Assembly: GCA_025350665.1 (NCBI GenBank)
Contig: JANXXJ010000063.1
Location: forward strand, 1-59,335
DNA: 59,335 nucleotides
Direction of reading: 5' to 3'
From: Gemmatimonadota bacterium
GTDB lineage: Bacteria; Gemmatimonadota; Gemmatimonadetes; Gemmatimonadales; GWC2-71-9
Shown here: positions 37,110-51,432 of the stretch, in pieces
Layout of the letters: the number at the start of each line of letters is the position of its first letter
Numbering within the stretch: position 1 is the first letter of the stretch
The notes under the pieces: model-generated
Databases searched by the model: none
Told to the model about the DNA's origin: nothing
What the model saw: the letters and a program-made list of their open reading frames with translations, nothing else
Translations under genes and position numbers: made by a program

Positions 37110-38966
37110 TCAGTGTCCGATCACCATCTCCAGGTGGGTCGGGTACCGGACCGACTGGTAGATCCGCTGGGTGGCCGGGCGGTAGTCGCCGCGTTTGGCT
37201 TCGAAGACGCTCGGCGTGAACGTCTGCGGGTTCCGGTCGATCAGCGGGAACCAGCTACTCTGGACCTGGACCATGATCCGGTGTCCCTTGAGGAACCGGT
37301 AGTCGACCGAGTGGAGGTCCACCGTGTAGGGCACGACGGCGTCCGCCGCCAGCGCGACGGGCTTCTCGAACCCCTGATGGAACCGGCCCCGGAGCACATC
37401 GCCCATCACCATGAGCTGGTAGCCGGCCATCTTCGGATCGGCGGGGTCGGGCTCCGGATAGGCGTCGATCAACTTCACGATCCAGTCACTGTCCGTCCCG
37501 GTGGTCGAGGCGAACAGCCTGGCCACGATCGAGCCAGAGACCACCACGTCCTGGTCGAGCGGTGGTGTTGTCCAGGAGAGGACATCCTTCCGGCCGGTGA
37601 GGAACCGCTGATCCTGGACCTGCCAGGTGGTCCAGCCGCCGAAGCCTAACGTCGGATCGACCGGCCGTTTGCGGTACGGCACCGGATCGGCGGGGTCGGA
37701 GAGATATTCCGCGAACGCCGCCCCGGGGGCGGGTGGCGTCCAGGCCAGTTTTCCGCCGGGCTGGAGATAGAGGTTCTTCACGGCGGTGCCGGTTCGCTCC
37801 GGCCAGCTCGTGTGCGAGACCCAGCGGTTGGCCCCGGGCTCGAAGGTGGTGGCTTCGGCGAGATCGATCTTGCCCTGGCCCTTCAAGTAGAAGCGGAACC
37901 AGGGGAGCTGGATCTTTTCCCGGAAATACCGGCCCGTCTCGCTTCCGAAACTCACCCGGCCAAGCGAATCACCCTTGCCGGCCGCCCAGCCGCCGTGGTT
38001 CCACGGGCCGACAACCAGGAAGTTCTGGTTGTGGGTGTCGTGGCGTTCGAGCAGTTCGTAAATCCGGAGCGGTCCGTAGAAGTCTTCCTGGTCCCACCAG
38101 CCGGCTACGTTCAGGGTGGGGACCGTGACCTTCGTGAGGTAGGGTGCAAAGGCCTGGCGCTTCCAGAAGCCGTCGTAGTTCGGATGGGAGACGAAGTCGA
38201 CCCAGGTCGGCAACTTGGCGCCGCCGTACTTCTCCTCGACGTTGATCAGTGGCCCAAGGTCGAGGTACCACTGGTACGTGTCGGGGGTCCCGAACTCGAA
38301 CGGCTTCACTTCGGCGCCCCGCTCCATGGCGAAGGCGTATTCCATGGCGTAACTCAGCCGGAAGGCACCGTTGTGGTGGAAGTCGTCGCCCAGGTACATG
38401 TCGGCCGGGGAGGCCTGGGGCGAGACGGCCTTGAGGGCCGGGTGCGGATCGAGCATGGCCATGACCGTGGTCCAGCCCATGTACGACACTCCCATCATCC
38501 CGGCCTTGCCGTTGTTGTTCGGGACGTTCTTGAGCAGCCAGTCGATCGTGTCGTAGGTGTCGGTGCTCTCGTCGATCGCCTTGGGGTCCTTGGAATTCCG
38601 GGGCGGGCGGAGCATGACGAAGGTGCCTTCCGACCGGGATTTCCCGAGGATGTCCTGGAGGACGATGATGAAGCCATCGTCGATCAACTCCCGGAAGGCG
38701 TAGAGCGAGCCTGGGAACCCCTTGGCGTCAACGCCGGACAGGACCCCGTAGGGCGACCGGTTCAGGATGAAGGGCATCGGCTCGCGCCGGCCGATCGGGG
38801 TGTAGATCGCGGTGTGGAGCTTGACCCCGTCCCGAGTCGGAATCATCACGTCCTGGCGGGTGACCTTGGTGGTCCAGTCGACGCGTTCCTGCGCCGCCGA
38901 TCGGTTGACAAGGATCGCGCCGGCGGCCATGGCGATCAGAAGCGAAGTCTGGACACGACGGGCCAT
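37110..38966 (-). CDS. CocE/NonD-family hydrolase (alpha-amino acid ester hydrolase-like), secreted
   Basis: RDGVKLHT, GVSYMG nucleophile elbow, GWWDQED, GPWNHG, SSWFPLIDRNPQ. Confidence 0.92.
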   Translation of the reverse strand: MARRVQTSLLIAMAAGAILVNRSAAQERVDWTTKVTRQDVMIPTRDGVKLHTAIYTPIGRREPMPFILNRSPYGVLSGVDAKGFPGSLYAFRELIDDGFIIVLQDILGKSRSEGTFVMLRPPRNSKDPKAIDESTDTYDTIDWLLKNVPNNNGKAGMMGVSYMGWTTVMAMLDPHPALKAVSPQASPADMYLGDDFHHNGAFRLSYAMEYAFAMERGAEVKPFEFGTPDTYQWYLDLGPLINVEEKYGGAKLPTWVDFVSHPNYDGFWKRQAFAPYLTKVTVPTLNVAGWWDQEDFYGPLRIYELLERHDTHNQNFLVVGPWNHGGWAAGKGDSLGRVSFGSETGRYFREKIQLPWFRFYLKGQGKIDLAEATTFEPGANRWVSHTSWPERTGTAVKNLYLQPGGKLAWTPPAPGAAFAEYLSDPADPVPYRKRPVDPTLGFGGWTTWQVQDQRFLTGRKDVLSWTTPPLDQDVVVSGSIVARLFASTTGTDSDWIVKLIDAYPEPDPADPKMAGYQLMVMGDVLRGRFHQGFEKPVALAADAVVPYTVDLHSVDYRFLKGHRIMVQVQSSWFPLIDRNPQTFTPSVFEAKRGDYRPATQRIYQSVRYPTHLEMVIGH

Positions 38967-39031
38967 CGGGAGCCTCGACTCATTGGATGGTGACAGGGAC
39001 CGGGATGATAGCGGATCGACCCCCCGAACAG

Positions 39032-40039
39032 TCAGCCCGCGGCTTTCACACCGGTTTCTGCCTGGGCGAGGTGAGCCCGGCGCAACGCCGTCGCCGTCTT
39101 GTGGTCGCCCGTGTGGCTCCAGCCCGGGGGCATCACGACGTAGCGGATCTTGTTGAGAAGACCCGGCGCCCGCCACACGTCCCGCGCCAGCAGCACGATC
39201 TCGCCGAAATAGACGTCGAGGAAATTGCCGGGATTCACCTTGCGGGTGATCCCGTAATCCGGCTGGACCGAGAGCTGTTCGTGCTGCAAGGTGCCGAAGA
39301 CCCGGTCCCAGACGTTGAGCAGGTTGCAAAAGTTGGTGTCGATGTAGAGCGGGTTTCTGGAATGGTGGACCCGGTGGTGGGACGGCGTGAGAATCAGCCG
39401 CTCGAGCGGCCCCAGCCGGGCATCCACCAGGAGGTGTTCGCCGGCATGGATGAACATGCCCCACATGCCGTCGATGAACATGATCAGAAACAGGAGCGGC
39501 GGGCTCAGACCCAGCAGAATGCAGGTCGAGGTCCGGATGACGTCGGCGTACGGGGCTTCGAGGAAGAAGTGGGCGTGGCTGACGAACAGATTCATGCTCT
39601 CGGGCGCATGGTGGGTCGAGTGGAGGCACCACAAGAGCCGGACCTTGTGGGCCAGGTAGTGATAGATGAAGTGACCCAGCTCCCAGACCACGTAGCCGTA
39701 CAGCAGCCCGTACCACGTGATTTTGAGACTGAAGGGGGCGATCGGCGTGAACACGCCGATCGCGAACGCGGTCGCGGCGATCGACACCCAGCCCGATATG
39801 ATCCGGTTGAACACGTAGATCAGAAAGATCAGCCGGTACTCGCGACCGCGGAACGTGCGCGTCCAGAGCGCCCTGACGATCTCGAACACCAACAGCAGAG
39901 GGAGCAGCGGCCCGATCGCTCCCGTGAACCCGCTCCAGGTCCTGAGACTCGAATAGTCGCCGGACTGGACCATCGTGATCCAGGAGCCCAGACCCAGAAA
40001 GCCGGTCAGCTCATGCAGCAGGGTGGTGAGGACGGTCAT
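39032..40039 (-). CDS. Sterol desaturase / fatty-acid hydroxylase family membrane protein
   Basis: His boxes HYLAH, HSTHH, HHRVHH; WDRVFGT. Confidence 0.9.
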   Translation of the reverse strand: MTVLTTLLHELTGFLGLGSWITMVQSGDYSSLRTWSGFTGAIGPLLPLLLVFEIVRALWTRTFRGREYRLIFLIYVFNRIISGWVSIAATAFAIGVFTPIAPFSLKITWYGLLYGYVVWELGHFIYHYLAHKVRLLWCLHSTHHAPESMNLFVSHAHFFLEAPYADVIRTSTCILLGLSPPLLFLIMFIDGMWGMFIHAGEHLLVDARLGPLERLILTPSHHRVHHSRNPLYIDTNFCNLLNVWDRVFGTLQHEQLSVQPDYGITRKVNPGNFLDVYFGEIVLLARDVWRAPGLLNKIRYVVMPPGWSHTGDHKTATALRRAHLAQAETGVKAAG

Positions 40040-40755: not shown

Positions 40756-42378
40756 TCAGGGCACCGGCCCCTCGCTGAAGAATCGCGGGCCGGCGCCGCG
40801 CCACACCGGCCGGCCCGGCGCATTCGCCACCGCATAACCGATCCGCAGATTGGCCTCGCCGTAGACCACCGCCGCCTGCCAGTCGATGCCCTGGTCAAAC
40901 CGGTCCCGCGGCGTATGATGGACCCGGCCGAACCAAGCCCGCTGAGCCTCGACCCCGGTCTGGGCGCCGTGACCGCTCATCTTCCCCGGGAACAGCATGA
41001 CGCCTGGCACGCCAACCCGCATGAAACTGTAGTGATCACTCCGGGTGAAGATGGTCATCCAGGGCAGAGCATCCTCGCTGAGTTTGAGCCCAAGGCCCCG
41101 GATCGCGCCGCCGACGACGTCATCGAGACTCGAGTACTTCGCTCCATACGCCACCAAGTCCTGCACCGGGTTGGTGAAGACGAAGTTGTCGAGGTTGATG
41201 TCGGCCACAATCCGCCCGATCGGTACCGGAGGATGGTGGGCGAAGTAGTCCGAGCCGAGGATGCCCTTCTCCTCCCCGGTCACCGCCAGAAAAATGATCG
41301 ACCGTCTCGGCCGAGGCCCGGTGGCAAACGCCCGGGCAACGGCCATCATCGTCGCGGTGCCGCCGGCGTTGTCGATCGCGCCGTGGTAGACGCTGTCGCC
41401 GTCCACGGGGTCCCCGATGCCGACATGGTCGAGATGGGCGCTGTAGACGACGTATTCCTGCTTGAGACGAGGGTCGCTGCCCTCGAGGACGGCGGCGGCG
41501 TTGGAAACGGTGACCGGCCGATGCCGGAACCGGGCCTTGAAACGCAGACTGGCATTCATCGGAAAAGAGACCGGCCCTTTGGCAAGGTCCCGGGCGACGT
41601 CTTCGAATTTCCGTCCCGCCGCCTCGAAGAGGGCCGCGGTGCCCCGATCGGCGAATCGGAGCACGGCGCCGGTCTCGAAGAACGGGGAATGAGCCCGCCC
41701 CGCATCGTCGAGCCATCCCAACCCCTCGAGCTGGCCGAGGCTCCGGCTGAGCGCCGGCCCCGGGACCGGCATCAGCGTGACCACGCCGACGGCGCCGTGC
41801 TCGAGCGCATTCCGTTCCTTGGCCGCCAGCGAGGCGAAATGACCCCGTTCGTCCGGTGCCAGTGAGGGCGGGCCGCCGAAGACCATGACCGCGAATTTGC
41901 CGCGCACATCGATGCCCTGGTAGTCGTCGTACGCCAGGGCCGGCGCGGTCACACCCCAGCCGACGAACACGGCCTCCCCCGCCAGATCCACCGAGTCCCG
42001 CCCCTTGTCGGCATGAACCAGGAAGTCCACGTTGAGTTCAAGGACACGCGACCCCGACCGAGTGACGAGCTCGAGCACGACACCGGCCGGATCGAGCTCC
42101 GACCGGCGAAGCGGCACCGGCAGCAGTCGCGACGAATCGGCGCCCAACGGCTTCAAGCCAAGGGCCTCGAACTCGGCCGCTACGTAGCGAGCGGCGATTT
42201 CCGCCCCTCGTTGGCCGGTCTCCCGCCCTTCGAGGTACCGGTCAGCCAGAAATCGGATGTGACTGGCGATCCACTCCGGCCGGATCCGGCTGGCTGGCGG
42301 CGCGGCGCGCTTCGGTCCAGACTGGGCGGAGACCGTCGACGCGACCATCACCGTCACGGTCAGGGCAAGTCGGGTCAT
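40756..42378 (-). CDS. M28-family peptidase with PA domain, secreted
   Basis: SAHLDH, GAIDNAGG, GEEKG, NLD, RSDH, HHTPRD. Confidence 0.92.
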   Translation of the reverse strand: MTRLALTVTVMVASTVSAQSGPKRAAPPASRIRPEWIASHIRFLADRYLEGRETGQRGAEIAARYVAAEFEALGLKPLGADSSRLLPVPLRRSELDPAGVVLELVTRSGSRVLELNVDFLVHADKGRDSVDLAGEAVFVGWGVTAPALAYDDYQGIDVRGKFAVMVFGGPPSLAPDERGHFASLAAKERNALEHGAVGVVTLMPVPGPALSRSLGQLEGLGWLDDAGRAHSPFFETGAVLRFADRGTAALFEAAGRKFEDVARDLAKGPVSFPMNASLRFKARFRHRPVTVSNAAAVLEGSDPRLKQEYVVYSAHLDHVGIGDPVDGDSVYHGAIDNAGGTATMMAVARAFATGPRPRRSIIFLAVTGEEKGILGSDYFAHHPPVPIGRIVADINLDNFVFTNPVQDLVAYGAKYSSLDDVVGGAIRGLGLKLSEDALPWMTIFTRSDHYSFMRVGVPGVMLFPGKMSGHGAQTGVEAQRAWFGRVHHTPRDRFDQGIDWQAAVVYGEANLRIGYAVANAPGRPVWRGAGPRFFSEGPVP

Positions 42379-42440
42379 GGCTGCCTCGGCTCGGATACCA
42401 CGGGTAACAGCAGACGCGAGGCGGTGCCGGGCCGCGGCTC

Positions 42441-45400
42441 CTACTGCGGCGACCCCGGCCGCTTCGAACGGATCGGGAACGGCGGTTCCGGCTTGAGAAT
42501 CACCGGCTTCTCCTTGAGCAGCCGCAGCGCCTCTTCGACCGCACGCTCGAGCTGGGGCTCCCGCCCGGCGGCGACGTCCTTGGGCAGCATGTCGACCGCA
42601 ATGTCGGGCGCCACACCCTCGTTCTCGACCGCCCACTTGCCGTTCACGTCGAAGAACCCGCCCCGCGGCGCCAGCATCGCCCCGCCGTCGATCAGCGGCG
42701 GCGTGTCCCAGATCCCGACCAGCCCGCCCCAGGTCTTGGTGCCGATCAGCGGACCGATCTTCATCTGCTTGAACATGAACGGCAGCATGTCGCCACCGGA
42801 CCCCGAGCTCTCGTTGATCAGCATCACCTTGGGGCCCCAGATCCCGGCCTCCGGAGTCGTGAACGGCTGGCGGTTGCCGACCGGATTGTTGAAGTAGCCC
42901 TGGAGCGGCCGGCTCAGCAATTCCACGATGTAGTCGGCCGCCGACCCGCCGCCGTTGAACCGTTCGTCGATCACCGCGCCCGGCCGGTCCTGCTGGGCGA
43001 AGTAGTACCGGTTGAAGAAGGTGTAGCCGGCGGTCGACGTGTTAGGCAGATAGACGTACGCCAGCTTCCCGCCAGACAACTTGTCGACCAGCCGGCGGTT
43101 CGCCTCGACCCAGTCGAAGGTCCGCAAGCCGGCTTCGCTCGCGACCGGCACCACGGTCACCCGGCGAGCCCCGTCGAGCACGGGCTTGGCGTTGACCGAA
43201 ATCGTGATCTGGCGCTCGGCCGTACCCTCGAGCAGCCGGTCGAGATTGTCCCGGGCCGTCAGTTCGACGCCGTTCACCGCCACCAGGTAGTCCCCCACTT
43301 GGACGTCGATCCCCGGCGCCGACAACGGGGCGTGGAGCCCCGGGTTCCAGCTTTCACCGGTCAGGATCTTCGCGATCCGGTACCGTCCCTCCGCGATCTC
43401 GTAGTCGGCGCCCAGCAGGCCGGCCTTGGCGCTCGCCACCGGAGGCAGGTCACCGGGGAAGACGAAGGAGTGACCGACCGCGACTTCGCCGCCCAGCATG
43501 TCCTGCAGGAACACCAGGTCCGACCGGTGCCGTACGTGGGCCAGCATCGGGGCGTACATCGCCTTGGTCTTGACGTAGTCCGCGCCGTGCATGTTCGGCA
43601 CGTAGAGGAAATCCCGCTGGAACCGCCACCCCTCGTCGAACATCTGCTTGAATTCAGTCTTGGGATCCACCAGCATCCGGACCGACGCGAGGCTGACCGT
43701 CCCGGCTCCGGCCGCGGGTGGTGCGGCGTCCCCGTCCACGATCTGCCAGGCCGGACCCGACTGGACCAACAGCTTCTTCCCGTCCGCCGAGACTCTGAAG
43801 CTGGTGACCCCGGTGGTGAACGGCACGGCCTTCCGGGTCTTGAGCTGGTAACGATGGAGGGTGCTCCCCCCGCGCATCGGGGCGGTCCCGGTTTGCGGGA
43901 TCGACTCGAGGAAGAAAAACGTGCCCGCCGACCCGGACCGGAGCATCTGGTAGTCCCGCGCCGCGGCGTCGGTCGCCACGATCCGGCCGGAGAGGCCGTC
44001 AAAATCGATCACCACCGGCTTGACCGTGGAGGTGTCCTTCTTTTCGGCAGGCTTCGCGGGGTCGATCACCGGCTCGTCGTCGCTCTCCGGCAGCAGCGGA
44101 GACGGGTCGCCTTTCTTGAGCACGGCGAGATAGAGCGATCGCGTCACCTCGCGGCCCATTGACTGCATCTCGAGCCACCCGGTGTTGAGACCCAGGTCGG
44201 TCGAGGCGAGGAAGGCGAGATACTTGCCAGACTGGTCCCATGCCGGCCAGACCGCGTCCGCCATGCCGTCCGTCGCCTGATGGACCTTCCCGAGCGCCAC
44301 ATCATAGACGTAGATCGCGTGCAGCTGGGTCGGCAGACGCTTGGCGTACGCGATCCACTTCGAGTCCGGACTCCAGACCGGGTTCATCGACCGCTGCGGC
44401 ACCATCCACTGGTCGGTGTCGGCCTGGGTGGCCTTGCCCGTCGCCACGTCGACGATCCACAGGTTGAGCCCCGTGTCGGTAAACAGGATCTTCTTCGAAT
44501 CCGGCGACCAGGCCGGCGTATAGTAGAACGTCGGCTTCGGCAGCTCGATCTCGCGGGGCGCGGTAGCCCCGTCCGCGGGCGCGATGACCAGGCGGTATTC
44601 CCCGCTCTGATCGCTGAACCACGAGATCGACTTCCCGTCCGGCGACCAGACCGGGTTCCGGTCCGCCGCCCCGGGTGAGTTGGTCAGATTCCGCCAATCG
44701 CCCTTCTCGGCGGGAACGGAGAAGATCTCACCCCGGGCCTCGAATAGCGCCCGCTTGCCCGTCGGCGAGAGCGCCGCGTTGAACACCAGGTCCGCCACCG
44801 GCTTCCACGAGGGCTCCATCCAGGGGAAGTCGCCCCGCACAGTGACGTTGACGGCCTGCGCCTTGCCCGCCTTGGGATCGAACAGGTGGATCCGGCCGCC
44901 CTGCTCGTACACCAGCACGCCGCCCCCGGCCGATAGCGACTTGATATCGTAGTCGGTGAACCGGGTGACCTGGGTGGTCTGCTTCGTTCTGGTGTCGTAG
45001 GCCCAGATGTTCATCAGGAAATCGCGGTCCGACAGGAAGTAGACGGTCTCGCCGATCCACGATGGCGACAGGTCCCGGCTCCCCGACCACGACGGGCTCT
45101 CCACCTCCAGATTGTCCATCCGGGCAATCCAGATTGGCCGGCTCTGCCCGCCACGGTAGTTCCGCCATTCCGGATCCCAGAAATTGGGCATGACGTAGGC
45201 GAACTTCTTTCCGTCGGCACTGTACTGGCCATCCGATCCCCTCGGAATCGCCAGAGGGACTTCGGCCCCGCCCTCGACGGACACGGTCCAGAACTTGGTG
45301 ATGTTGCCGGGTCCGGAGGTCCGCGACGAGGTGAACACCACTGAGCGGCCGTCCGGCGTCCAGCCGGTCACGTCGCCGCCGGCCGGGTGCCAGGTCAGGC

Positions 45401-45698: not shown

Positions 45699-46811
45699 TC
45701 AGTCCTGGCTGAACTTGATGAGGGTGTCGTTGTCCGCGTGCCGGCGCATCAGGCCGAGCAGCATTTCCATCGCGGCGGCCGGAGGCTGCCGGTCAATCTG
45801 GCGTCGGAGCTTCTGGGTGGCGGCCAGCGCCCCTGGACTCAGGAGCAGCTCCTCCTTCCTGGTCCCACTGCCCACCAGGTCGATCGCCGGAAAGATCCGG
45901 CGGTCGGCGAGGTCGCGGTTCAGCACCAGTTCGCTGTTGCCCGTTCCCTTGAACTCTTCGTAGATCAGCTGATCCATCTTGCTGCCGGTGTCGATCAGCG
46001 CCGTGGCGATGATGGTGAGCGACCCGCCGCCCATCTTGGGGTCGACTTTCCGGGCGCTCCCGAAGAACCGCTTCGGATGCTCCAGGGATTCCGCCCCCAC
46101 GCCACCCGACAGCGTGCGGCCACTCCCCTTCACCACCGAATTGTAGGCCCGGGCCAGCCGGGTGAGCGAATCGACGATCAGGACCACGTCCTCGCCCTGC
46201 TCCACCCGCCGGCGGGCTCGTTCCAGCAGGAGTTCGGCGCAGGCCACATGGCGGGCCGGCGGATGATCGAACGTGGAAGCGATCACCTCGCCGAATCCCG
46301 CGGCCTCGATCTCGAAGACCTCCTCGGGCCGCTCGTCGACCAGCAGGATGAACAGGGCCGCGGCCGGCTGGTTGACGCTGATCCCCTCGGCAATGGCCTG
46401 GAGCACCATCGTCTTGCCGGCCTTGGCCGGGGCCACGATCAACGCGCGCTGTCCCTTGCCGAACGGGCACATGAGGTCGATGACCCGCGTGGTGTAGTCC
46501 GGTTGTCCTCGCCGGACCAGACGACATTCCAGTTTGAGCGCTTCGTTCGGATGGATCGCGGTCAGGCGGTCGAACGCGGGACGCTCCCGGATCGACTCCA
46601 GCGCGCGGCCGTTCACCTTGAGGATCCGGCCCAGCGAAGGCCGGCCCCCCGGCTTGGGCTCGGCCTCAATCTCATCTCCCGGCCGAAGGCCCAGCTGGCC
46701 AATCAGGTTGCCAGGCACCTGGATGTCGCGCTGATCCGGCTGGTACGCGTTCTCACGCCGACGGAGCACTCCGTTGTTGCGGCCGGTCAGCTCGAGAATC
46801 CCTTGAATCAT
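45699..46811 (-). CDS. rho: Short atypical transcription termination factor Rho homologue (370 aa)
   Basis: [44 protein letters not shown]; begins at the OB fold; GAGGA SD upstream. Confidence 0.9.
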
Positions 46812-46973
46812 GCATCCTCATTCGACACGAGAACGGCGCGGCCCTGCCGCCGAACGGCGGCCAGGGAGCGCCTGAACCTGAAGATTACTGGTCCGATAAT
46901 ACCCGGACTGGGCGAAAAGGCCCATGCGGCGGGGCTTTACCCTCGTCCCGGCGGGCACTACCCTTGGCTCGCC

Positions 46974-48161
46974 ATGCCCACTCCACTTCGCGTTGCCGTC
47001 ATCGGCGCCGGCCGCTGGTCCGCCTCGGCCCACCTCCCCGGATTCTACCGGTCCCAGCTCTCGGAAATCGCGGTCATCTGCGACCTCGATCGCGAACTGG
47101 CCCTGAAACGAGCCGCCCAGTTCGGCGATCCCGAGGTGACGACCGATTACCGGACCATTCTGGCCCGGCCCGACATCGACATCATCGACATCGTCACCCG
47201 TGGCGATCACCAGGACCTGGTCTTCGAAGTCCTCGAGGCCGGCAAGCACTGTCTGGTCGAAAAACCGGTCTGTCACGACTATCGCGACGTCTGGCGAGCC
47301 CATCGACTGGCGGAATCCAAAGGCCTCAAGACCAAAGTCGGGCTCACCTTCCGGTATGCCCCGGCGATGATGTACGCCTTCGACCTGATCCGGCAGGGCT
47401 TCATCGGGGAGCCGTTCATTTTCAACGGCTACGAGCAGAACTCCCAGTGGCTCGACCCCGACAATCCAATGGACAAACGGATTCACAAGGCCAAACCGGT
47501 CAACGAGAAGCCCTGGGGGGTCGATCCGTCCCGCGAGGGGATCACGGTGTCCTCGCTCGAGGGTTATGGCGCCCCCACCATCGACATCGGCCTCGAAATG
47601 GTCGGCAGCGACCTCTCCCGCGTGATCGGCATCCTCGCCAACATGGTCAAGCACCGCCGCCGCACCAACCTCGACACCGCGCGGGAACGAATCAACATCG
47701 ACGACGCCGACATGTTCATGGGCGAGGCGGCCAATGGGGCCCTCTACTCGATGCAGTCGAGCTACGTGGCGGTGGGAAACTATCCGGGCATCGAAGCCAG
47801 GATCTCCGGATCGAAGGGCGCCATCAAAGTCCGGCTGGTCGAGGAGTTCGGCGTGATCCAGACGATCCACACCGCCACCGCCGAGAAGGTGGAGTTTGTT
47901 CAGCAGGAAATCCCGGCCCACTATTTTCCCCCGGGTTTCCGGACCGACGACCCGTGGAGCACGGCGTTCTACGGCAACCTGGTTCACAATTTCTGCCAGG
48001 AGATCGTGGCCGGCGGAGCCGAGAACCAGGGCAACTTCGCCCAGAGCGCCCGGGTTCAGGAGATCATCAACGGCGTCGCACTGTCCCACCGCGAACGCCG
48101 CTGGATCGACCTCCCGCTCGACACCACGCGGGACATTACCATTCAATCGAGCCCGTTCTGA
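46974..48161 (+). CDS. Gfo/Idh/MocA-family oxidoreductase
   Basis: VAVIGAG, AGKHCLVEKP, FRYAP. Confidence 0.88.
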   Translation: MPTPLRVAVIGAGRWSASAHLPGFYRSQLSEIAVICDLDRELALKRAAQFGDPEVTTDYRTILARPDIDIIDIVTRGDHQDLVFEVLEAGKHCLVEKPVCHDYRDVWRAHRLAESKGLKTKVGLTFRYAPAMMYAFDLIRQGFIGEPFIFNGYEQNSQWLDPDNPMDKRIHKAKPVNEKPWGVDPSREGITVSSLEGYGAPTIDIGLEMVGSDLSRVIGILANMVKHRRRTNLDTARERINIDDADMFMGEAANGALYSMQSSYVAVGNYPGIEARISGSKGAIKVRLVEEFGVIQTIHTATAEKVEFVQQEIPAHYFPPGFRTDDPWSTAFYGNLVHNFCQEIVAGGAENQGNFAQSARVQEIINGVALSHRERRWIDLPLDTTRDITIQSSPF

Positions 48162-48199: not shown

Positions 48200-49606
48200 G
48201 TGAGCCCTGACAACGGCATGACCCCGCCAGCCCGACCGATCGATCGGCCCCTCGCCGAAGCGCTCGCCTCCCAGGCGATCGACCTGGGTGAATGGATCGG
48301 TGAAGGAGCGACCGCGATCGTCTATCGGGCCTCCGACCGGAAGCACGACCGGTCGCTGGCCGTCAAGGTCCTGCGGGATGCGGTCCCCACGGAGTTCGGG
48401 GCGGCCCGGTTCGCCAACGAAATCAAAATCAGCGCCCGCCTGCGGCACCCCGGCATCCTCCCCCTGATCGATTCGGGCCAGACCGCCGACGGCCGGGTCT
48501 ACTACCTGATGCCCTTCGCGGAAGGCGAGACCCTGGGGGCCCGGCTCGCCCGCGGGCCGCTGCCACTCAATGAGGCGATCCGGATGGCGGGGGAGCTGGC
48601 CGAGGCGCTCGCGTTTGCCCATCAGGCCGGGTATGTCCACCGGGACGTCAAGCCCGATAACATCATGATCGAGGCCGGCCGGGCCGTGCTGGCCGATTTC
48701 GGGCTGGCCCGCCGGATCGTGGCGACCAGCGTCGGACCCGGCTACCGGACGGAGCCCGGAATCGCGGTCGGCACGCCCGCGTACATGAGCCCCGAACAGC
48801 TGGCCGGCGAGGAACCGCTCGACGGTCGTTCGGATGTCTACGCGCTCGGCGTGGTTCTGTGCGAAATGATCACCGGGCGGTCGCCGTTCGCGGCCACCAA
48901 TACCCTCCGCATGATGACGGCCCGGTTCGATCCCAACAACTCGCTCAGCGAGATCCTCGCGCCGATCCCCGACCCCCTGAAACCCATCCTCCGAAGTGCC
49001 CTCGCCGTCGATCCCGCCCGGCGACCGACCGCCGACGAGTTCGTGGCGGCGCTGCGCCAGGTCGAATCGGGCGCCCGGCCCGGTGTTCCCACCCGGCCGG
49101 GTCGGCGCTGGCTCGGCGTCGGCATGGTGGCCCTGGCCCTCGGCGCCGGAGCCTGGTGGTCGCTCCGAGGCGTCACGACCCTCGATCCCCGGCGCGTTCT
49201 CGTGGCCGACTTCGCCAACGAAACCAATGACCCGTCCCTCGATCGGATCGGGCCGATCGCCGGCGACTGGATTTCGGCGGCCCTGGCCCCGATGTCGCGG
49301 CTCTCGATCCTGAACGGGGCCTTCATCCTCGGCGCCCCGCGGCGAACGGTGGGTCAGAACGAAGCCGCCACGTCGATCAGCCGGCTCCGGGTCGTGGCAG
49401 ACTCGAGCGGGGCCGGCACGGTCATCACGGGTTCCATTTACGGCACGCCGAGCCGTCTGGAACTGTTCGCCGAGGTCCTCGACGCCCGGAACGGACGCCT
49501 GCTTGGCGCCATGGGGCCGTTGACCGGCCGGGTGGGCGCACTCGACTCGCTGATGACCGAGCTGCGAAACCGGATCACCCCGATCGTCGCGTCACGGATC
49601 CCATGA
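48200..49606 (+). CDS. Ser/Thr protein kinase with TM helix and short extracytoplasmic domain
   Basis: GEGATAIVY, HRDVKPDN, DFG, GTPAYMSPE; RVLVADFANET; alternative start ATG 48218. Confidence 0.9.
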   Translation: MSPDNGMTPPARPIDRPLAEALASQAIDLGEWIGEGATAIVYRASDRKHDRSLAVKVLRDAVPTEFGAARFANEIKISARLRHPGILPLIDSGQTADGRVYYLMPFAEGETLGARLARGPLPLNEAIRMAGELAEALAFAHQAGYVHRDVKPDNIMIEAGRAVLADFGLARRIVATSVGPGYRTEPGIAVGTPAYMSPEQLAGEEPLDGRSDVYALGVVLCEMITGRSPFAATNTLRMMTARFDPNNSLSEILAPIPDPLKPILRSALAVDPARRPTADEFVAALRQVESGARPGVPTRPGRRWLGVGMVALALGAGAWWSLRGVTTLDPRRVLVADFANETNDPSLDRIGPIAGDWISAALAPMSRLSILNGAFILGAPRRTVGQNEAATSISRLRVVADSSGAGTVITGSIYGTPSRLELFAEVLDARNGRLLGAMGPLTGRVGALDSLMTELRNRITPIVASRIP

Positions 49607-51432
49607 TGACCGGCCAGGCCCGCCCGATGATCGCATGGACCGTCATGGCACTGGCGGCCGCCGGCAGTGCCGCCGCCCAGTCGGTCCGGGTCCACGTCGT
49701 CGAGGCCGAGACCAGGCAACCAGTCCCCGGCGCGATCGTCAGCGTCGTGGACGGGACCAATCGGCGGCTCGTCCAGGGCCTCACCGGTGAGTCGGGCCGG
49801 CTGGTCCTTCGCGCACCAACGCCCGGATCCTTCCGGCTCCGCGCCGACCGGATCGGCCACCCCGGGATCTGGAGCGAACCGTTCGATCTCGGCGACTCGA
49901 TCTCGATCGAATTGGTGATGCCCGTCGATCGCGTGACCCTGCCCGAGCTCACCGTCCGCGCCACGTCGAATTGCGAGCCCCGCGCCGACGGGGAACAGAC
50001 CGCAACGCTGTGGGAGGAAATTCGGAAGGCCCTCTCCGCCGGGCAGATCACGTCGGTCACGCAGAGCGTCGAGTTGGACGTGCAGCGGTTCCGACGCTAC
50101 CGGACCTGGTCGGGCAGCCTGCGGGCCGACAGCACGATCGAGGAGTACAGCACGCGGAGCTCACCCTTCGTCAGCCCCGCTCCGTCCGCGCTGCGGGCGG
50201 AGGGCTACATCCGGCAGTCTGGTGACCAGTATCAGTTTCGAGGGCCCGATGCGACGGTCCTGCTGTCACCGGAGTTCCTCGAAACCCACTGCTTCGAGCG
50301 GAAGGCGTCTCGGAATACCCCGGGACTCGTAGGGCTGGGATTTCGCCCGACCCGGGAGGTCGAGCTCCCCGACATCCAGGGAACATTGTGGGTCGATCGT
50401 GGCACGCTCGAGCTCCACCACCTCGACTTCGAATTTCAGAACGCGCCCCCTGCGGTCCGCGCCCCCGGCATCGGCGGACGGGTGGAGTTCGAGCGGCTCG
50501 CCACCGGGAGCTGGATCATCCGGGACTGGTACATCCGGAGCCCCGACCGAGTCGTCATCGCTCGCCGCGGGGCCTCGCCGCTGGATGCCGTTCGGGACAG
50601 CATCGTCGGCTATGTCGACGAGGGAGGCACTGCGCGCCCGGTAGGGGATGTCCGGACGGCGCTCCGGGAGACCGCAGCCAACGTGCGCGAGGCCACTCGG
50701 ACGTCAGGAGACCTGCGAGGGCGGCTGGTCTCCCCCGAAGGCACGCCGATCGCCGGGGCCCTGATTGCCGTCGCGGAGACGGATTCCGTCTACACCAGCG
50801 GGGGCGACGGGCGTTTCGAGGTGCGCGACCTGCCGTCCGGCCGGCTCCAGGTCCGAATCCGTGCCATCGGGTTCCGGCCGTTCGGCGCCGAATTCGCCCT
50901 GTCGAGCGGGCGGCGGTTGATCGACACGACCCTGATCCTGCAGCACTCGGCCCAGATCCTCGATTCGGTCGTCGTGACCGCCAGGGCGACGACGTTCGAA
51001 GCCGGGAAGATGGCTGACGTCGAGCGCCGGATGAAATCAGGCTTCGGGCGGTTCATCACCCGGACCGCGCTGCACGACCCGCTCCAGGGCGGCCTGGACA
51101 CTCAGCTCCGCCGATTCGCCCGGATGCGGCTGGCGCCGTTGTGTCACGGGATCGGCCTGGGCGCGATGTCCGCCACGCGCGGCGACTCGCCGATCGGTGT
51201 GAACTGTCACCCCCAGGTTCTCACCGGGTGTTTCATGGCGGTGTTCATCGACGGGGCCTTGTACTGGTCACCGGACATGGGCGCGGTGGCCGAGCCGCCG
51301 GATCTGACCAAGTTCAACCCGCTCGACCTGGAAGCAGTCGAGGTCTACCGGAGCGACGCCGAGCTGCCGATCGAGTTCGGCGGTACCAACGCGTCATGCG
51401 GCGTTTTGCTGCTCTGGACTCGGGTCGGATGA
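49603..51432 (+). CDS. Secreted protein with two carboxypeptidase-regulatory-like domains and a C-terminal plug-like domain
   Basis: Signal peptide; PVPGAIV..G..RADRIG and PIAGALI..RAIGF repeats; VFIDG, DLEAVEVY, CGVLLLWT. Confidence 0.8.
   Translation: MMTGQARPMIAWTVMALAAAGSAAAQSVRVHVVEAETRQPVPGAIVSVVDGTNRRLVQGLTGESGRLVLRAPTPGSFRLRADRIGHPGIWSEPFDLGDSISIELVMPVDRVTLPELTVRATSNCEPRADGEQTATLWEEIRKALSAGQITSVTQSVELDVQRFRRYRTWSGSLRADSTIEEYSTRSSPFVSPAPSALRAEGYIRQSGDQYQFRGPDATVLLSPEFLETHCFERKASRNTPGLVGLGFRPTREVELPDIQGTLWVDRGTLELHHLDFEFQNAPPAVRAPGIGGRVEFERLATGSWIIRDWYIRSPDRVVIARRGASPLDAVRDSIVGYVDEGGTARPVGDVRTALRETAANVREATRTSGDLRGRLVSPEGTPIAGALIAVAETDSVYTSGGDGRFEVRDLPSGRLQVRIRAIGFRPFGAEFALSSGRRLIDTTLILQHSAQILDSVVVTARATTFEAGKMADVERRMKSGFGRFITRTALHDPLQGGLDTQLRRFARMRLAPLCHGIGLGAMSATRGDSPIGVNCHPQVLTGCFMAVFIDGALYWSPDMGAVAEPPDLTKFNPLDLEAVEVYRSDAELPIEFGGTNASCGVLLLWTRVG

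Follow-up and report, generated by a model that had tools for sequence, protein, structure and literature searches.

The DNA considered in this study is contig JANXXJ010000063.1, a stretch of 59,335 nt from a metagenome-assembled genome of the Gemmatimonadales (assembly GCA_025350665.1; 4.59 Mb in 366 contigs, with an estimated completeness of 94%). I will refer to the whole of this stretch as the window. The sequencing runs that contain its DNA are sediment metagenomes, with no RNA run listed among them, and the four compared here are DNA from one study. The gene of interest, rho2, encodes a shortened form of Rho, the transcription termination factor, and occurs in this genome together with a full-length rho. 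Its product lacks the N-terminal helix bundle of Escherichia coli Rho and all four aromatic residues of the primary RNA-binding site, and it retains the catalytic residues of the motor. It belongs to a clade of second Rhos found across the Gemmatimonadota, whose RNA-binding surface looks remodelled and whose function, as I will argue, is probably that of an accessory RNA translocase and terminator.

The short rho gene and its product

The features of the window are collected in Table 1. Read upstream in frame, the start of rho2 is '...E*GCMIQG', with a TGA two codons ahead of the ATG, and an N-terminal extension is therefore impossible. A first-pass annotation of the sequence had described a protein without the N-terminal helix bundle and with a GAGGA Shine-Dalgarno sequence of its own, and both parts of that description are borne out by the upstream TGA, by the GAGGA in front of the gene, and by the lack of a Rho_N match (see below). 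The GAGGA is only 3 nt from the ATG, and the motif is not kept in relatives. The position of the start codon (M/V-I-x-G) is conserved among orthologues from the same genus, while the sequences upstream of it diverge.

Two additional runs of this study gave contigs that support the assembly across the start, matching positions 45993-47000 with 0 differences and 0 gaps. Within the gene, contig depth leaps from about 6-9 to 450-650 over positions 45976-46022, part of the stretch coding for the R-loop, and one short contig joint skips 46016-46099, in the same stretch. I read both the spike and the joint as cross-matching from rho genes of other organisms in the metagenome. A promoter scan returned 0 promoter-like sites and a terminator scan 2 terminator-like sites where 2.2 are expected by chance; both are uninformative.

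Table 1. Features of the window (positions count from the first nucleotide of the 59,335-nt stretch; aa, amino acids).
Feature	Position	Strand	Basis or remark
rho2 (short second Rho) coding sequence, 370 aa plus stop	45699..46811	-	open reading frame list
rho2 start region: ATG 46809-46811, GAGGA 46815-46819, in-frame TGA 46818-46820	46809..46820	-	
OB-fold RNA-binding domain, residues 1-70	46602..46811	-	begins at E. coli residue 50-52; primary-site aromatics replaced
RNP1-equivalent stretch, residues 10-19	46755..46784	-	F62 = N13, F64 = V15, R66 = R17; R18 and R19 come next
Codon of Q31, at the E. coli Y80 position	46719..46721	-	alignment to 1pv4_A
Connector from OB fold to motor, residues 71-104	46500..46601	-	alignment to E. 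coli Rho
RecA-type Rho motor, residues 105-370	45702..46499	-	Walker A, catalytic Glu, Arg valve, Walker B, Q-loop, R-loop, Arg finger
Tricorn-like S41 peptidase, 1084 aa	42441..45695	-	3 nt past the rho2 stop, same strand; Pfam PD40, Tricorn_C1, PDZ_Tricorn, Peptidase_S41
M28 peptidase	40759-42636	-	open frame overlaps the tricorn-like S41 frame
S15 X-Pro dipeptidyl-peptidase	37113-39716	-	
GFO/IDH/MocA oxidoreductase	46974..48161	+	divergent, upstream of rho2; start approximate; Pfam GFO_IDH_MocA
Ser/Thr protein kinase	48200-49606	+	
609-aa protein with CarboxypepD_reg domains	49603-51432	+	4-nt overlap with the kinase gene

The domain content of the short Rho is that of a Rho truncated at the OB fold. 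The Pfam model Rho_RNA_bind (PF07497) matches residues 3-70 with 34.7 bits (cut-off 27) and ATP-synt_ab matches residues 108-315 with 88.4 bits; the same Pfam search gave no match to Rho_N (PF07498), the three-helix bundle of the N-terminus being absent. Of the models for the whole family, NF006886 of NCBIfam (PRK09376 Rho) gives 435.1 bits, above its cut-off of 315, and TIGR00767 gives 433.5 bits (434.6 in the genome search), below its cut-off of 509.45. With phmmer, residues 3-364 align to residues 52-412 of E. coli Rho (1pv4_A) at E = 7.5e-99.

An AlphaFold2 model of the short Rho, made from an alignment of 86 rows, has a mean predicted local distance difference test score (pLDDT) of 93.6 and a predicted template modelling score (pTM) of 0.92. 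In that alignment R77, which corresponds to E. coli R128, hardly varies. The strands of the OB fold fall in the model at residues 2-9, 13-17, 30-32, 47-52 and 59-66, a block with pLDDT values of 86-95. When the model is submitted to Foldseek, chains of E. coli Rho rank first (5jji_D, with TMq 0.94 and root-mean-square deviation 1.7 over 366 columns at 49% identity). The short Rho is intact, and in the model its fold matches that of E. coli Rho all the way from the OB fold to its C-terminal end.

The first-pass annotation had also called the motor motifs intact, and the catalytic residues checked are indeed retained. In E. coli numbering, which I will use from here on for aligned positions, the short Rho has K184, T185, D210, E211, R212, D265, S266, R269, L320, T323, K326, G337 and R366; the changes from E. 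coli are K283 to R and P180 to A. The pattern is general among the relatives introduced in the next section. In all of 155 paralogues K184, T185, D210, E211, R212, D265, S266, R269, L320, T323 and G337 are invariant and K283 is R; R366 is found in 154, and position 326 is K or R. Among the catalytic and bicyclomycin-pocket residues checked, the sole exception is P180, which is A in 148 of the 155, the rest being invariant or conservatively replaced. P180 is listed with the predicted contacts of the bicyclomycin pocket, and P180A is reported from a few Actinomycetes, in the available parts of PMC11347177. Paralogues and other Rhos differ sharply at only seven positions (138, 180, 217, 218, 263, 308 and 412). 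Judged from the aligned residues, the short Rho keeps the full set of residues required for ATP hydrolysis, for the arginine finger by which the active site of an adjoining subunit is completed, and for the Q and R loops of the central channel.

The primary RNA-binding site in a clade of second Rhos

The full-length rho of the same genome lies on contig C226. It scores 678.8 bits against TIGR00767 (model positions 2-413) and 62 bits against Rho_N, the only Rho_N match in the genome, and its product is only about 51% identical to the short Rho. The suggestion of a second, separate Rho thus holds, and the contrary possibility that the short gene is the only rho of its genome fails.

A search of 41 genomes of the same order, that of the window included, gives a general picture of the arrangement. 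Among the matches listed (36 weaker ones lie beyond them), a B-type Rho like that of the window occurs in 35 genomes, an A-type or canonical Rho in 40, and both in 34. Six genomes (G022, G028, G030, G036, G038 and G040) have no paralogue among the matches listed, and one, G010, which is 73% complete, has a B-type match without an A-type. The G010 paralogue, at C29:5161-6101, is split into three pieces that overlap, and TGA stops interrupt two of these internally. A wider scan, with one genome per species, found 80 loci, 75 of which come from genomes labelled Gemmatimonadota, Gemmatimonadales, Gemmatimonadaceae or Longimicrobiales and encode proteins 58-89% identical to the short Rho; these I will call the named relatives. 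The protein database contains no fewer than 120 clusters whose identity is 65% or above, with lengths of 361-437 aa, and in 116 of 120 close homologues no more than 8 residues precede the OB fold. The helix bundle was seen in no relative examined, and the proposal that this copy is simply decaying, its relatives having kept a full N-terminus, fails on that account.

Two sets of loci in the scan carry other labels. L078, from an entry titled 'Bacillota bacterium MAG294', has a rho2 of Gemmatimonadota type (69% identity) with Vgb_lyase-like and fatty-acid desaturase neighbours, as in L077 of the Gemmatimonadales, and its contig is probably mis-binned or mislabelled. In L145 and L147-L150 (Acutalibacteraceae, Coriobacteriaceae) the stretch that matches the query opens with the OB fold, which has T/S and V/I, none of them aromatic, at positions 62 and 64 and F at position 80; these proteins score 546-552 bits with TIGR00767, above its cut-off, and in the tree they stand well apart from the Gemmatimonadota clade.

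Relative to E. coli Rho the short Rho carries F62N, F64V, Y80Q and Y110P, leaving none of the four aromatics with which the primary site grips the pyrimidines of rut RNA. The substitutions that the first-pass annotation had picked out by eye all proved correct in the phmmer alignment to 1pv4_A. Elsewhere in the OB fold there are the changes L58T, E108G and R88 to Q, and R66, D78 and R109 are retained. In E. coli Rho, according to the available parts of PMC10491184, it is F64 and Y80 that grasp the pair of 3' nucleotides in the core primary site, and an extended site is lined by F62, R88 and K115, with R88E abolishing RNA binding.

How general these changes are may be seen by comparing the named relatives with 28 canonical Rhos of the Gemmatimonadales. 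At position 62 none of the 75 relatives has F, Y or W, as against Y in 26 of the 28 canonical proteins, and at position 110 none has an aromatic residue, as against all 28 (Y in 27, F in 1). Positions 64 and 66 are much alike in the two sets: F64 is present in 69 of 75 relatives and 27 of 28 canonical Rhos, R66 in 73 and 27, respectively. The two positions that follow are R in most relatives (72 at position 67, 69 at position 68), whereas canonical Rhos have S (26 of 28) and Q (22 of 28). Position 80, which is Y in all 28 canonical proteins, is variable in the relatives (Y 51, H 7, Q 6, R 4, A 3, K 1). The 120 close homologues agree, with R66 and D78 in every one and R67 and R68 in 116 each. 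Among 33 paralogues taken from genomes, V at position 64 is limited to the window protein and its nearest relative, from G002, and only in the window's sublineage have all four aromatics been lost.

The change in composition is also evident over the OB fold as a whole (positions 52-120). The window protein has a net charge of +2, with 8 Arg and 1 aromatic residue, as compared to -3, 5 and 8 for the canonical Rho of the same genome. Those last values are also the canonical medians, and the paralogues stand at +1 to +2, with 8-10 Arg and 3 aromatics. The first-pass annotation described the primary site as eroded, which is too strong a word for the clade, where R66 and D78 are kept, F64 and Y80 persist at the frequencies given above, and a run of three arginines has been gained. 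From the alignments, the primary site across the clade looks remodelled, not lost or random, and the window's sublineage looks like its extreme case.

Many relatives carry additional basic segments, though not always in the same place. The Gemmatimonadaceae-type (f2) and Longimicrobiales-type copies have long Arg/Gly-rich N-terminal regions that end in an acidic stretch, and one group within the genus of the window's organism has an Arg-rich N-terminal tail of about 35 residues. In three members of that genus, L023, L024 and L025 (from genomes G015, G008 and G016), Arg/Gly-rich insertions of tens of residues occupy the RNP3 loop, and in L023 the surroundings of RNP1 have also turned into low-complexity Arg/Gly sequence. 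A different variation is seen in the f3-type copies L036, L038 and L039 and in L037 (G024), which have a much reduced OB region, a start of the form M-P-x-(I/V)-T-G-W-(F/Y), and a deletion of the stretch around position 80; Rho family models match L039 only from model position 115 on. The window lineage has no basic accessory segment at all: no N-terminal region, no tail, and a shortened RNP3 loop. The shifting arginine-rich segments of the relatives would fit selection for non-specific RNA capture.

The paralogues form a single group in both trees that were built. In a quick IQ-TREE analysis of 97 rows, the 33 genome-derived paralogues and 2 database representatives make up one clade (SH-aLRT, the approximate likelihood-ratio support value, 99) on a stem of length 0.62, apart from the 28 canonical Gemmatimonadales Rhos (support 99), from E. 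coli Rho, and from 33 other representatives. FastTree with 190 rows recovers the same clade with support 99; the copies labelled Longimicrobiales fall inside it and 139 of 143 database representatives outside. No well-supported sister of the clade was found among the 143 representatives, which carry no taxonomy; labelled Group B sequences from Actinomycetota and the Planctomycetes-Verrucomicrobia-Chlamydiae group are not in the tree.

Selection was assessed from ratios of nonsynonymous to synonymous substitutions per site (dN/dS), calculated by the method of Nei and Gojobori for 11 pairs of paralogues and 8 of canonical Rhos. Among the paralogues the whole gene gives 0.047-0.257, the OB fold 0.065-0.334 and the remainder 0.016-0.232; the corresponding ranges for canonical Rhos are 0-0.061, 0-0.072 and 0-0.059. 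For the same pairs of genomes, dN of the paralogue is at least about 6-fold that of the canonical gene wherever the latter is measurable (0.184 vs 0.031 for G000-G021, 0.034 vs 0.002 for G006-G005). The gene is therefore constrained and yet fast-evolving: it is under purifying selection, and its OB fold evolves fastest. A conserved clade of short, pocket-degenerate copies under purifying selection is what the first-pass annotation had proposed to look for, and such a clade is found (support 99, dN/dS 0.05-0.26).

The genes around rho2

In the window, rho2 is probably co-transcribed with the tricorn-like peptidase gene that follows it. That gene is the first of three large peptidase genes that stand in a row downstream of rho2, on the reverse strand between 37110 and 45695. 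The true start of the second, the M28 peptidase gene, probably lies further in than its open frame suggests, given the overlap with the tricorn-like frame.

I considered whether any of these neighbours might be a conserved partner of rho2, and none proved to be. An operon conserved with the tricorn-like peptidase or the oxidoreductase was rejected: of 32 related loci, only that of G002 has both genes, and that of G018 has the oxidoreductase alone. A more general link to peptidases looked possible at first, since 6 of the 11 lineages first sampled have an adjoining peptidase, but over the 75 named loci peptidases account for just 7 of 135 flanking open reading frames and belong to three families. 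No gene is conserved beside rho2 among the 75 named loci. Synteny is instead specific to lineages, with Aminotran_4 in one, Aminotran_5 and a GDSL lipase in another, and a HAD-type ATPase with DUF5916 in a third. In L014, L131, L111, L103, L106 and L133, genes for Ku, the LigD 3'-phosphoesterase domain, ATP-dependent DNA ligase, or topoisomerase IB adjoin rho2; the lineages are unrelated and too few to make a pattern.

Possible function, and relation to described second Rhos

What might a Rho do that has kept its motor and lost the helix bundle and the primary-site aromatics? On balance I favor the view that the short Rho is a working accessory RNA translocase and terminator, active beside the canonical Rho, that loads onto RNA through a basic and less pyrimidine-specific site. 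It would assemble into a ring of the Rho type and move 5' to 3' along RNA. The loading step would differ, there being no helix bundle and no F62, F64, Y80 or Y110, and in their stead R66, D78 and the run R17-R18-R19 on a basic OB surface. RNA would be captured mainly through electrostatic contacts, with weak pyrimidine specificity, or else loading would be helped by RNA polymerase or NusG. With the bundle and the aromatics lost, R66 and D78 kept, and the OB fold basic, electrostatic and weakly specific capture or assisted loading appears the most likely course. The short Rho might then act, in a high-GC genome, on transcripts or sites that are poorly handled by the canonical Rho, which reads rut sequences. 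Some independence of Rho from tight RNA binding has been described in another setting: Y80C Rho still supports H-NS-linked silencing, which is ascribed to a 'stand-by' route less dependent on RNA binding (PMC12360218, in the parts available).

A number of points weigh against this proposal. With R66 and D78 retained, and F64 or Y80 in most relatives, cytosine recognition could persist in the clade, and relaxed specificity could be confined to the window's sublineage. The alignment of the RNP3 loop (positions 105-111, and with it position 110) is uncertain through indels and variation in length. According to earlier work cited in PMC11347177, E. coli Rho loses RNA binding when its first 27 residues are deleted, and a homohexamer with neither bundle nor tail might therefore bind RNA too weakly on its own. 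The fragmented paralogue of G010 reflects either decay or an assembly error. The trees, a quick IQ-TREE analysis and FastTree, are unrooted and place the clade on a long branch; they fit an ancient duplication as well as one that arose within the phylum and then accelerated. Among the more distant pairs used for dN/dS, some have dS above 1. Finally, no experimental work on a second or Group B Rho was found in the literature searched.

The main rival, notably for the minimal form in the window, is that the short Rho is a modulatory subunit. It would enter mixed hexamers with the canonical Rho and, by leaving each ring with fewer rut-reading primary sites and fewer helix bundles, tune the strength or specificity of termination, having little or no function as a homohexamer. 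I regard this as possible, though on the doubtful side. Among the matches listed, the paralogue occurs alone in no genome but the incomplete G010 (A-type in 40 of 41); the paralogues have an invariant Arg finger and P-loop, two elements that work across the interface between subunits; and the window protein lacks every accessory RNA-binding element of its relatives. Mixed hexamers of Group A/B pairs have moreover been proposed in print (PMC11347177, available parts). It is harder to reconcile with mixed rings that identity between the two copies is only about 51% and that the motor of the paralogue also evolves faster (dN outside the OB fold of 0.142 vs 0.031 for G000-G021), which strict compatibility at the interfaces does not obviously predict, and the arginine-rich segments at varying places in the relatives suggest selection for RNA capture of their own.

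A different view is that the protein is a translocase derived from Rho that has left termination for another job, such as removal of R-loops or RNA-protein complexes or the remodelling of RNA linked to decay, to which a protein partner, not an RNA sequence, would recruit it. This would account for the loss of the sequence-reading aromatics and the helix bundle from a protein that has kept its motor, for the OB fold being its fastest-evolving part (dN/dS up to 0.33), and for the f3-type OB regions that no longer match Rho models, as in L039. I nevertheless consider it improbable: the lineage-specific synteny gives no conserved neighbour that hints at a partner or pathway, and the protein has the channel loops and bicyclomycin pocket of a termination Rho. 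The evidence of sequence as such does not distinguish it from an accessory terminator. That the gene is a decaying duplicate, or that an artefact of assembly or gene calling removed its N-terminus, can scarcely be right. A missing N-terminal domain, four replaced aromatics and the internal stops of the G010 copy are what one might expect of decay, but the frame is intact, dN/dS lies at 0.05-0.26, the start position is conserved within the genus, in 116 of 120 homologues the start is no more than 8 residues from the OB fold, the contigs of further runs show 0 differences across the start, and the model reaches a pLDDT of 93.6.

A broader conjecture, rather unlikely as it stands, joins several of these threads. 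The second Rho of the Gemmatimonadota would no longer read rut sites at all, RNA capture would have moved to interchangeable Arg-rich segments, and the window lineage would be left with a bare ring that needs a loader, be it RNA polymerase or NusG, an adaptor, or canonical subunits within a mixed ring. If it were true, the clade would be a natural series in which to follow how Rho rings load and close without recognition at the primary site.

The literature on second Rhos provides the frame in which the accessory Rho proposed here should be seen. According to the available parts of Moreira et al. 2024 (PMC11347177), rho is duplicated in 116 of 2730 genomes, and the second copy mostly lacks the N-terminal domain. 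Such copies make up the 'Group B' of D'Heygere, Rabhi and Boudvillain 2013, refined by Moreira et al. to Type 4 / subtype 2d, and they conserve the catalytic and bicyclomycin-pocket residues; the same source proposes hetero-hexamers for Group A/B pairs. The general ideas of a second Rho that lacks the N-terminal domain and of mixed hexamers, both raised by the first-pass annotation, are already in print, and catalogues of such second copies go back to 2013. What the present analysis adds, modestly, is a clade, as wide as the phylum, that varies in its elements for RNA capture, the window protein being its most stripped-down member, lacking the helix bundle, any basic tail and all four aromatics. 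The clade makes a clean case for study, with a canonical Rho alongside (G010 aside), a conserved motor, and an RNA-loading surface that varies by lineage. In the cultured relatives (Gemmatimonas, Gemmatirosa) it can be asked directly whether the second Rho loads by itself, whether it mixes with canonical Rho, and which transcripts it ends.

Set beside canonical Rhos of the E. coli type (1PV4, 5JJI), the short Rho shares the motor motifs and has neither the three-helix bundle, which in the open ring touches the connector of the neighbouring protomer (PMC10491184, available parts), nor the four primary-site aromatics. NCBIfam offers a model for a short form, NF041509 ('paralog_Rho2, transcription termination factor Rho, short form'), with about 360 positions running from the OB fold, of which the short Rho covers 2-356. 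Membership was rejected: the short Rho scores 407.7 bits (407.2 in the genome search) against a cut-off of 628, the canonical copy of the genome scores higher, 463.7 bits, and no relative of rho2 that was tested reaches the cut-off. Another partial likeness is to the Rhos of Actinomycetota typified by Micrococcus luteus, in which basic RNP3 insertions accompany a non-conserved RNP1 and the loops are taken as extra RNA-binding surfaces (PMC11347177, available parts). L023-L025, with Arg/Gly insertions at the same RNP3 loop and a degenerate RNP1, resemble them, but the Micrococcus luteus-type Rhos are of Type 2, not short second copies, and the window protein has no RNP3 insertion.

The closest likeness is to Group B/Type 4. 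As far as the source and its supplement are available, Type 4 is defined by an RNA-binding domain that begins within the first 25 residues, 46 of the 58 proteins in the set are from Actinomycetota, and the RNP residues are stated to be conserved. In the short Rho the OB fold begins at residue 2-3, and it has in common with Group B/Type 4 a second gene beside a full-length Group A copy, the lack of the N-terminal domain, the catalytic residues, and a high-GC genome. It differs in having none of the four aromatics, whereas the Type 4 set keeps the RNP residues (a property described for the set, not a formal criterion). For cultured Gemmatimonadota the same source lists, beside a T1 copy, second Rhos typed 'T2, 2d' in Gemmatimonas aurantiaca (614 aa), G. 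phototrophica (688 aa) and Gemmatirosa kalamazoonensis (566 aa); compared from this table listing, they share with the window genome the phylum and the two-copy arrangement. In the f2 paralogues, as in the 2d proteins, the OB fold comes after a long N-terminal region rich in Arg and Gly, and these paralogues fall in the same clade as the window protein, which has no such region and has lost F64 and Y80, while all 8 f2 paralogues have F64 and 7 of the 8 an aromatic residue at position 80. Within the limits of what the available source describes, the short Rho is a Gemmatimonadota branch of the Group B/Type 4 second Rhos, a further example of these and not a new system.

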